Shown piece after piece: positions 51,688 through 51,726 of a DNA stretch of 64,000 bases. The stretch is from Escherichia coli. Lineage in GTDB: Bacteria > Pseudomonadota > Gammaproteobacteria > Enterobacterales > Enterobacteriaceae. Location: assembly GCF_003018255.1 (NCBI RefSeq), contig NZ_CP027440.1, one strand, 5' to 3'. How positions within the stretch are numbered: position 1 is the stretch's first letter; each line of letters starts with the position of its first letter. The notes beneath the pieces are model-generated. The model ran no database searches. It was not told where the DNA came from and saw only the letters and a program-made list of their open reading frames with translations. A program made the translations under genes and the position numbers.

Positions 51688-51726
51688 AATGAATTAAAAT
51701 TCAATTTATATGGATGATTATTCACT
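51688..51726 (-). promoter_or_regulatory. tandem ARG boxes (ArgR operator) in the argI promoter
   Basis: AATGAATTAAAATTCAAT (51688-51705) and TATGGATGATTATTCACT (51709-51726), separated by 3 bp; both fit TnTGAATwwwwATTCAnw. Confidence 0.7.

Follow-up and report, generated by a model that had tools for sequence, protein, structure and literature searches.

A tandem ARG-box pair as the very probable ArgR operator of argI in Escherichia coli

The argI gene and its surroundings

The window analysed here is the whole stretch of 64,000 nucleotides from Escherichia coli contig NZ_CP027440.1. The 1.7-kb piece around the site described below has a match in 5425 of 5426 complete genomes, and the window belongs to the ordinary core chromosome of E. 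coli. On the minus strand, the ORF at 50649-51662 matches the NCBIfam family NF009213 (ornithine carbamoyltransferase) with 754 bits and an E-value of 1e-227. Ornithine carbamoyltransferase carries out the citrulline-forming step of arginine synthesis. The encoded protein shares 332 of 334 residues (99.4%) with K-12 ArgI and 294 of 334 (88%) with K-12 ArgF, and the genes follow each other as in K-12 (yjgL-argI-rraB-yjgM-yjgN-valS). Because of the closer identity to ArgI and the synteny with K-12, we assign the gene to argI, which together with the family match bears out what the earlier note had said about the gene downstream of the boxes. In most genomes PGAP gives this gene the generic label 'argF', so for annotation the value of the analysis is that a gene with this label is confirmed as argI and that the coordinates of its promoter and operator are fixed.

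The argI ORF encodes 337 amino acids, compared with 334 in K-12, and the three extra codons add a C-terminal Leu-Asn-Asn (LNN). At 50649-50660, the 3' end of the gene, the sequence is AGTAAATTAAATAATTAA here and AGTAAATAA in K-12. Strain DETEC-S792 is annotated with the same 1014-nt argI CDS.

The neighbouring gene yjgL (48879-50519) is disrupted and highly divergent from K-12 YjgL (604 amino acids). It has an in-frame stop at 49623-49625, its LNNxQx tandem repeat is contracted by 30 residues, and its C-terminus is unlike that of the K-12 protein; in strains a15 and DETEC-S792 it is annotated as a frameshifted pseudogene. Elsewhere in the window, Rfam matches at the gathering score comprise the Mg riboswitch before mgtA (40857-40972), Ysr276 antisense to pepA (58423-58617), ES239 (11732-11854), two naRNA4 (CssrE) repeats (24369-24447 and 30612-30689), STnc450 (15206-15263) and ES036 (CssrF, 15343-15385). 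All of them are ordinary for this region of E. coli.

Two ARG boxes in the argI-rraB intergenic region

Upstream of argI, the plus strand of positions 51688-51726 reads AATGAATTAAAATTCAAT-TTA-TATGGATGATTATTCACT, i.e. 18 + 3 + 18 = 39 bp, and the argI sense (minus) strand of the same positions reads AGTGAATAATCATCCATA-TAA-ATTGAATTTTAATTCATT. The promoter-proximal box, at 51688-51705 (sense ATTGAATTTTAATTCATT), matches the ARG-box consensus WNTGAATWWWWATTCANW without a mismatch (AATGAATTAAAATTCAAT on the plus strand), and the promoter-distal box, at 51709-51726 (sense AGTGAATAATCATCCATA), matches it with two (TATGGATGATTATTCACT). Between them lies the 3-bp spacer at 51706-51708, TAA on the sense strand, and the centres of the boxes are 21 bp apart, about two helical turns. 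A scan of the 64-kb window with WNTGAATWWWWATTCANW as an IUPAC pattern, allowing at most two mismatches, finds three sites, two of which are these boxes, with 0.61 sites expected by chance. The earlier note had placed two ARG boxes of 18 bp, 3 bp apart, at 51688-51726, and both the direct reading and the consensus scan show these coordinates to be exact.

For scoring the site, a weight matrix was derived from the 16 boxes found in eight other ArgR operators of K-12 (carA, argA, argG, argR, argD, argECBH, artJ and artP). The argI and argF operators were left out of the training to avoid circularity. For each K-12 control region the best box pair seeded with the consensus was taken, giving a symmetrised 18-bp matrix of 13.6 bits. 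As the training sites were seeded with the literature consensus, the matrix is independent of argI and argF and not fully independent of the consensus. For the null distribution, 500 windows of 64 kb were simulated with a first-order Markov model that has the dinucleotide statistics of the window.

With 21.0 bits the proximal box comes first among about 64,000 18-mer positions in the window, and the distal box, with 16.2 bits, comes third. The training boxes range from 9.3 to 20.9 bits (n=16), so both argI boxes lie within or above that range. As a pair with a 3-bp spacer they reach 37.2 bits, rank one in the 64-kb window, while a frame shifted to a 2-bp spacer (51689-51726, with overlapping position) gives only 13.3 bits. 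In the simulations the maximum pair score has a mean of 11.05 bits (sd 2.9) and a highest value of 21.5, and 0 of the 500 windows reach 37.2. The earlier note had proposed such a scan with an ArgR matrix and regarded a low score as the adverse outcome; the score obtained, that of the top pair in the window, is far from low.

A matrix made from other operators thus recovers the argI site without false positives in 64 kb, since the sole other significant match is a published ArgR site upstream of pyrL. Other matches, for example at 36401-36439 (between nrdD and treC) and 16224-16241, score below the null maximum and were rejected.

A second ArgR-like site upstream of pyrL

The second-best pair in the window, with 27.9 bits and also above the null maximum of 21.5, is a tandem ARG-box-like pair at 46065-46103. 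Its minus-strand sequence is ATCAAATAAAAATGCATG-TAT-TTTGACTTTTAATTCAAA, and it starts 129 nt before the pyrL ATG (45974). It is located upstream of the pyrBI -35 and not over it, and is directly abutted by a PUR-box-like sequence, AGCGCAAACGGTTTAT, at 46050-46065. K-12 has the pair, at about 4472624-4472662, with the same score, and in several other genera there is a strong single box at about -248 from the pyrB ATG. That ArgR and PurR sites overlap in the pyrL promoter has already been reported on the basis of ChIP-chip (PMC4299497; PurR ChIP-chip PMC3159470).

The argI promoter and leader

The standard promoter scan, with a threshold of 9/12, calls no promoter for argI between the two genes. 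With a relaxed scan we identify the best conserved sigma-70-like candidate on the argI strand, with a putative -35 hexamer TTGCAA (51726-51731, minus strand) and, after 17 bp, a putative -10 hexamer TAAATT (51703-51708, minus strand). Together they have 8/12 consensus matches, just under the threshold, and this is why the standard scan missed them. The -35 hexamer is kept in 27 of 28 aligned sequences; the -10 hexamer is TAAAGT in some genera, and its A2 and T6 are found in all aligned sequences. Another 8/12 candidate, TTTATG-17-AATAAT (51745-51717), was discarded because its -35 region varies among species, unlike TTGCAA.

The distal box starts at the last base of the -35 hexamer, an overlap of one nucleotide, and fills the 17-bp spacer of the promoter. 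The -10 hexamer consists of the inter-box spacer and the first three nucleotides of the proximal box, which spans the expected transcription start, predicted near 51694-51697 on the minus strand. The overlap of the boxes with the likely argI promoter, as claimed before this analysis, therefore holds for both boxes if these hexamers, predicted from the sequence, are the ones used.

The predicted argI leader is about 33 nt long and ends in a Shine-Dalgarno sequence, GGAGGG (51667-51672, minus strand), 4 nt before the argI ATG, of which GAGG is conserved in the alignment. A small ORF like argL was considered for this leader and rejected: the frame from the distal box stops after 15 codons, and none is annotated in K-12.

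Outside the boxes, two blocks are invariant or nearly invariant in the alignment (n=28). The first, AAAGATTT on the argI strand, lies at about 51743-51750, 12-19 nt upstream of the -35 hexamer, and may be UP-element-like. The second, TTGCCTCCAC (GTGGAGGCAA on the rraB strand), lies at about 51759-51768, 56-65 nt before the rraB ATG. Both blocks may also belong to the promoter or leader of rraB. A small ORF following a conserved GGAGG (51762-51766, plus strand) was rejected because its ATG varies across species.

Conservation of the operator

To find orthologous loci, the N-terminal peptide of argI was back-translated to DNA and searched in one genome per species, which gave at least 120 loci. 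Among the loci listed, 28 encode proteins at least 84% identical to the ArgI of the window, and 27 of them have enough upstream sequence. The genera include Escherichia (E. albertii), Citrobacter, Enterobacter, Kluyvera, Pseudocitrobacter, Cedecea, Siccibacter, Mangrovibacter, Shimwellia and Superficieibacter. The same search also returns ornithine carbamoyltransferases (OTCases) that have the same N-terminal peptide and are about 60% identical to E. coli ArgI; among the matches listed these are common in Clostridia, Oscillospiraceae and Bacteroidales MAGs (e.g. loci L081 and L039).

Among the matches listed, all 27 other Enterobacteriaceae species have an upstream pair, the best scoring between 32.1 and 39.3 bits, with the spacer TAA in every case. 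In 26 of the 27 the pair begins 64-66 nt ahead of the ATG and in Shimwellia 53 nt ahead of it, and a divergent upstream ORF with an RraB-like motif is found in all 27. Non-enterobacterial OTCase genes served as negative control: of the 75 among the matches listed, scored with the E. coli matrix, only 2 have an upstream pair of at least 20 bits.

In the alignment of 28 Enterobacteriaceae sequences, the 39 bp of the operator have a mean column conservation of 0.947 and 28 of the 39 columns are invariant, compared with 0.79 for the leader, 0.79 for the stretch upstream of the -35 hexamer and 0.82 for the rest of the spacer between the genes. The proximal box has 15 of 18 invariant columns. For the distal box the sequence varies among the orthologues while the score is kept (10.6-18.2 bits), as predicted by selection on binding and not on sequence. 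Judged from this alignment, the operator is evidently under purifying selection across genera.

Proposed regulation of argI and alternative readings

The gene that would be controlled belongs to arginine metabolism (ornithine carbamoyltransferase), and at the sequence level the site has what marks an ArgR operator: the box consensus, the 3-bp spacing, the overlap with the promoter and a conservation above that of the flanks. We therefore consider that 51688-51726 is very probably the ArgR operator of E. coli argI.

According to published work, a single ArgR hexamer with bound arginine occupies two 18-bp ARG boxes 3 bp apart and keeps RNA polymerase out; at carAB P2 the binding of ArgR and that of RNA polymerase are mutually exclusive (PMC6245113). 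The arrangement seen at argI has been described for highly repressible arg genes, whose boxes overlap the promoter (PMC6640053). A ChIP-exo study, the text of which does not name argI, gives the ArgR motif a length of 39 bp (PMC4381063). From this K-12 literature we infer ArgR binding, its dependence on arginine and steric exclusion at argI. When arginine is abundant, one arginine-loaded ArgR hexamer would bind cooperatively to both 18-bp imperfect palindromes, which the 21 bp between their centres put on the same helix face. The DNA occupied would extend from the last -35 base across the -10 hexamer as far as the expected start of transcription and, since it would cover the promoter, RNA polymerase would be sterically excluded and argI repressed. 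When arginine is scarce, the repressor would leave and the TTGCAA/TAAATT promoter would fire.

The operator lies between two divergent genes, and it might also, or mainly, control rraB, which encodes an inhibitor of RNase E, through a wrapped ArgR-DNA complex of about 93 bp. In the 161-bp intergenic region common to both genes, the site is 98-136 bp upstream of the rraB ATG, the regions protected by ArgR in ChIP-exo are about 93 bp long and reach beyond the 39-bp motif (PMC4381063), and the divergent argI-rraB arrangement is the one found in all 27 species above. However, the promoter scan of the intergenic region found no rraB promoter on the plus strand, the boxes sit exactly on the argI hexamers and on nothing recognisable for rraB, and a literature search found no link between ArgR and rraB. 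We regard control of rraB through this operator as very unlikely. It is likewise very unlikely that either rraB is also modulated by the ArgR complex or, as a lesser variant, the rare C at position 51725 measurably alters the expression or repression of argI. If ArgR did affect rraB, arginine availability would be coupled to RNase E activity.

Another protein that binds AT-rich palindromes, such as Lrp, IHF or Fis, might be the one that recognises the boxes in place of ArgR, and ArgR and Lrp sites do overlap and compete at artP and lrp (PMC6640053). Here, however, the ArgR-specific dyad TGAAT-N4-ATTCA occurs twice with 21-bp phasing, and the positions conserved across species are those contacted by ArgR, which makes such a target extremely improbable. 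That the boxes match by chance, lying in promoter DNA rich in AT, and have no role in repressor binding has next to no probability: intergenic promoter DNA is indeed AT-rich, as is the core of the ARG box, and the best single site reaches the score of the distal box in 91 of the 500 simulated windows, but neither the proximal box nor the pair is reached in any of them, and among the matches listed the pair recurs in all other species with a fixed spacer at a nearly fixed position while the flanks drift.

The argI operator and other ArgR operators of K-12

The preferred reading, an ArgR operator of argI, is that of a long-known element. The argI operator belongs to the founding examples of the ARG box, and the feature brings no new biology. 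In K-12 the operator (NC_000913.3 4478337-4478375) is the same element at the same locus, with 38 of 39 bases identical; the spacer, the distance to the ATG (the box starts 64 nt upstream) and the flanking genes are also unchanged. We take the exact K-12 argI sequence to be a proven ArgR operator. The primary footprinting papers on argI are said to be those of Charlier et al. 1992, Tian et al. 1992 and Piette et al. 1982, and the first two, both cited in PMC6640053, reportedly describe arginine-dependent ArgR binding and in vivo repression for the K-12 sequence. A full-text literature search with the operator sequence as text gave no match. The gene of the repressor itself, argR, is at 3384703-3385173 in K-12 and falls outside the 64-kb window.

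The whole 161-bp argI-rraB intergenic region has two differences from K-12, at 51725 and 51751, and only the former falls within the 39 bp. Position 51725 is C on the plus strand (G on the argI sense strand), while K-12 and the nearest genome, DETEC-S792, have T (A on the sense strand). It is the degenerate position 2 of the distal box, an 'n' in the consensus, adjoining the -35 hexamer, and adds 0.3 bit to the score (16.2 compared with 15.9 in K-12). The change is predicted to be neutral.

Over 1701 bp, 51725 is the sole difference from DETEC-S792. The exact 70-mer around it is found in one of 5426 complete E. coli genomes, that of strain a15, whose ArgI differs from that of the window at two residues and does not have the 3-codon extension. 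The base may be a mutation private to this genome or an error of sequencing.

The K-12 argF operator is organised like that of argI, with two ARG boxes, a 3-bp spacer and a position 66 nt ahead of the ATG. The matrix gives 21.3 bits for the proximal argF box, AGTGAATTTTAATTCAAT, and 15.3 bits for the distal one. The earlier note had taken the boxes as support for the identification of argI. Boxes of the ArgR type are indeed present, but the boxes alone do not separate argI from argF, because the argF operator scores almost equally. The two genes differ in context, argF being in the CP4-6 prophage region next to xynR/IS1, and in the leader: argF has an annotated 31-codon argL ('putative translational regulatory protein', positions 4276-4371 of locus L003), whereas argI has no annotated counterpart. 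The argL frame begins inside the distal ARG box of argF and overlaps the argF start.

The operators of carAB P2, argA, argD, argECBH, argG and argR have the same arrangement of two 18-bp imperfect palindromes at the promoter, 3 bp apart (2 bp in argR), to which one arginine-loaded hexamer binds (PMC6245113). The argI boxes are nearer to the consensus, with two mismatches in total compared with 4-7 in the others. This agrees with the place of argI among the arg genes that can be repressed most strongly, as is reportedly the case according to Charlier et al. 1992.
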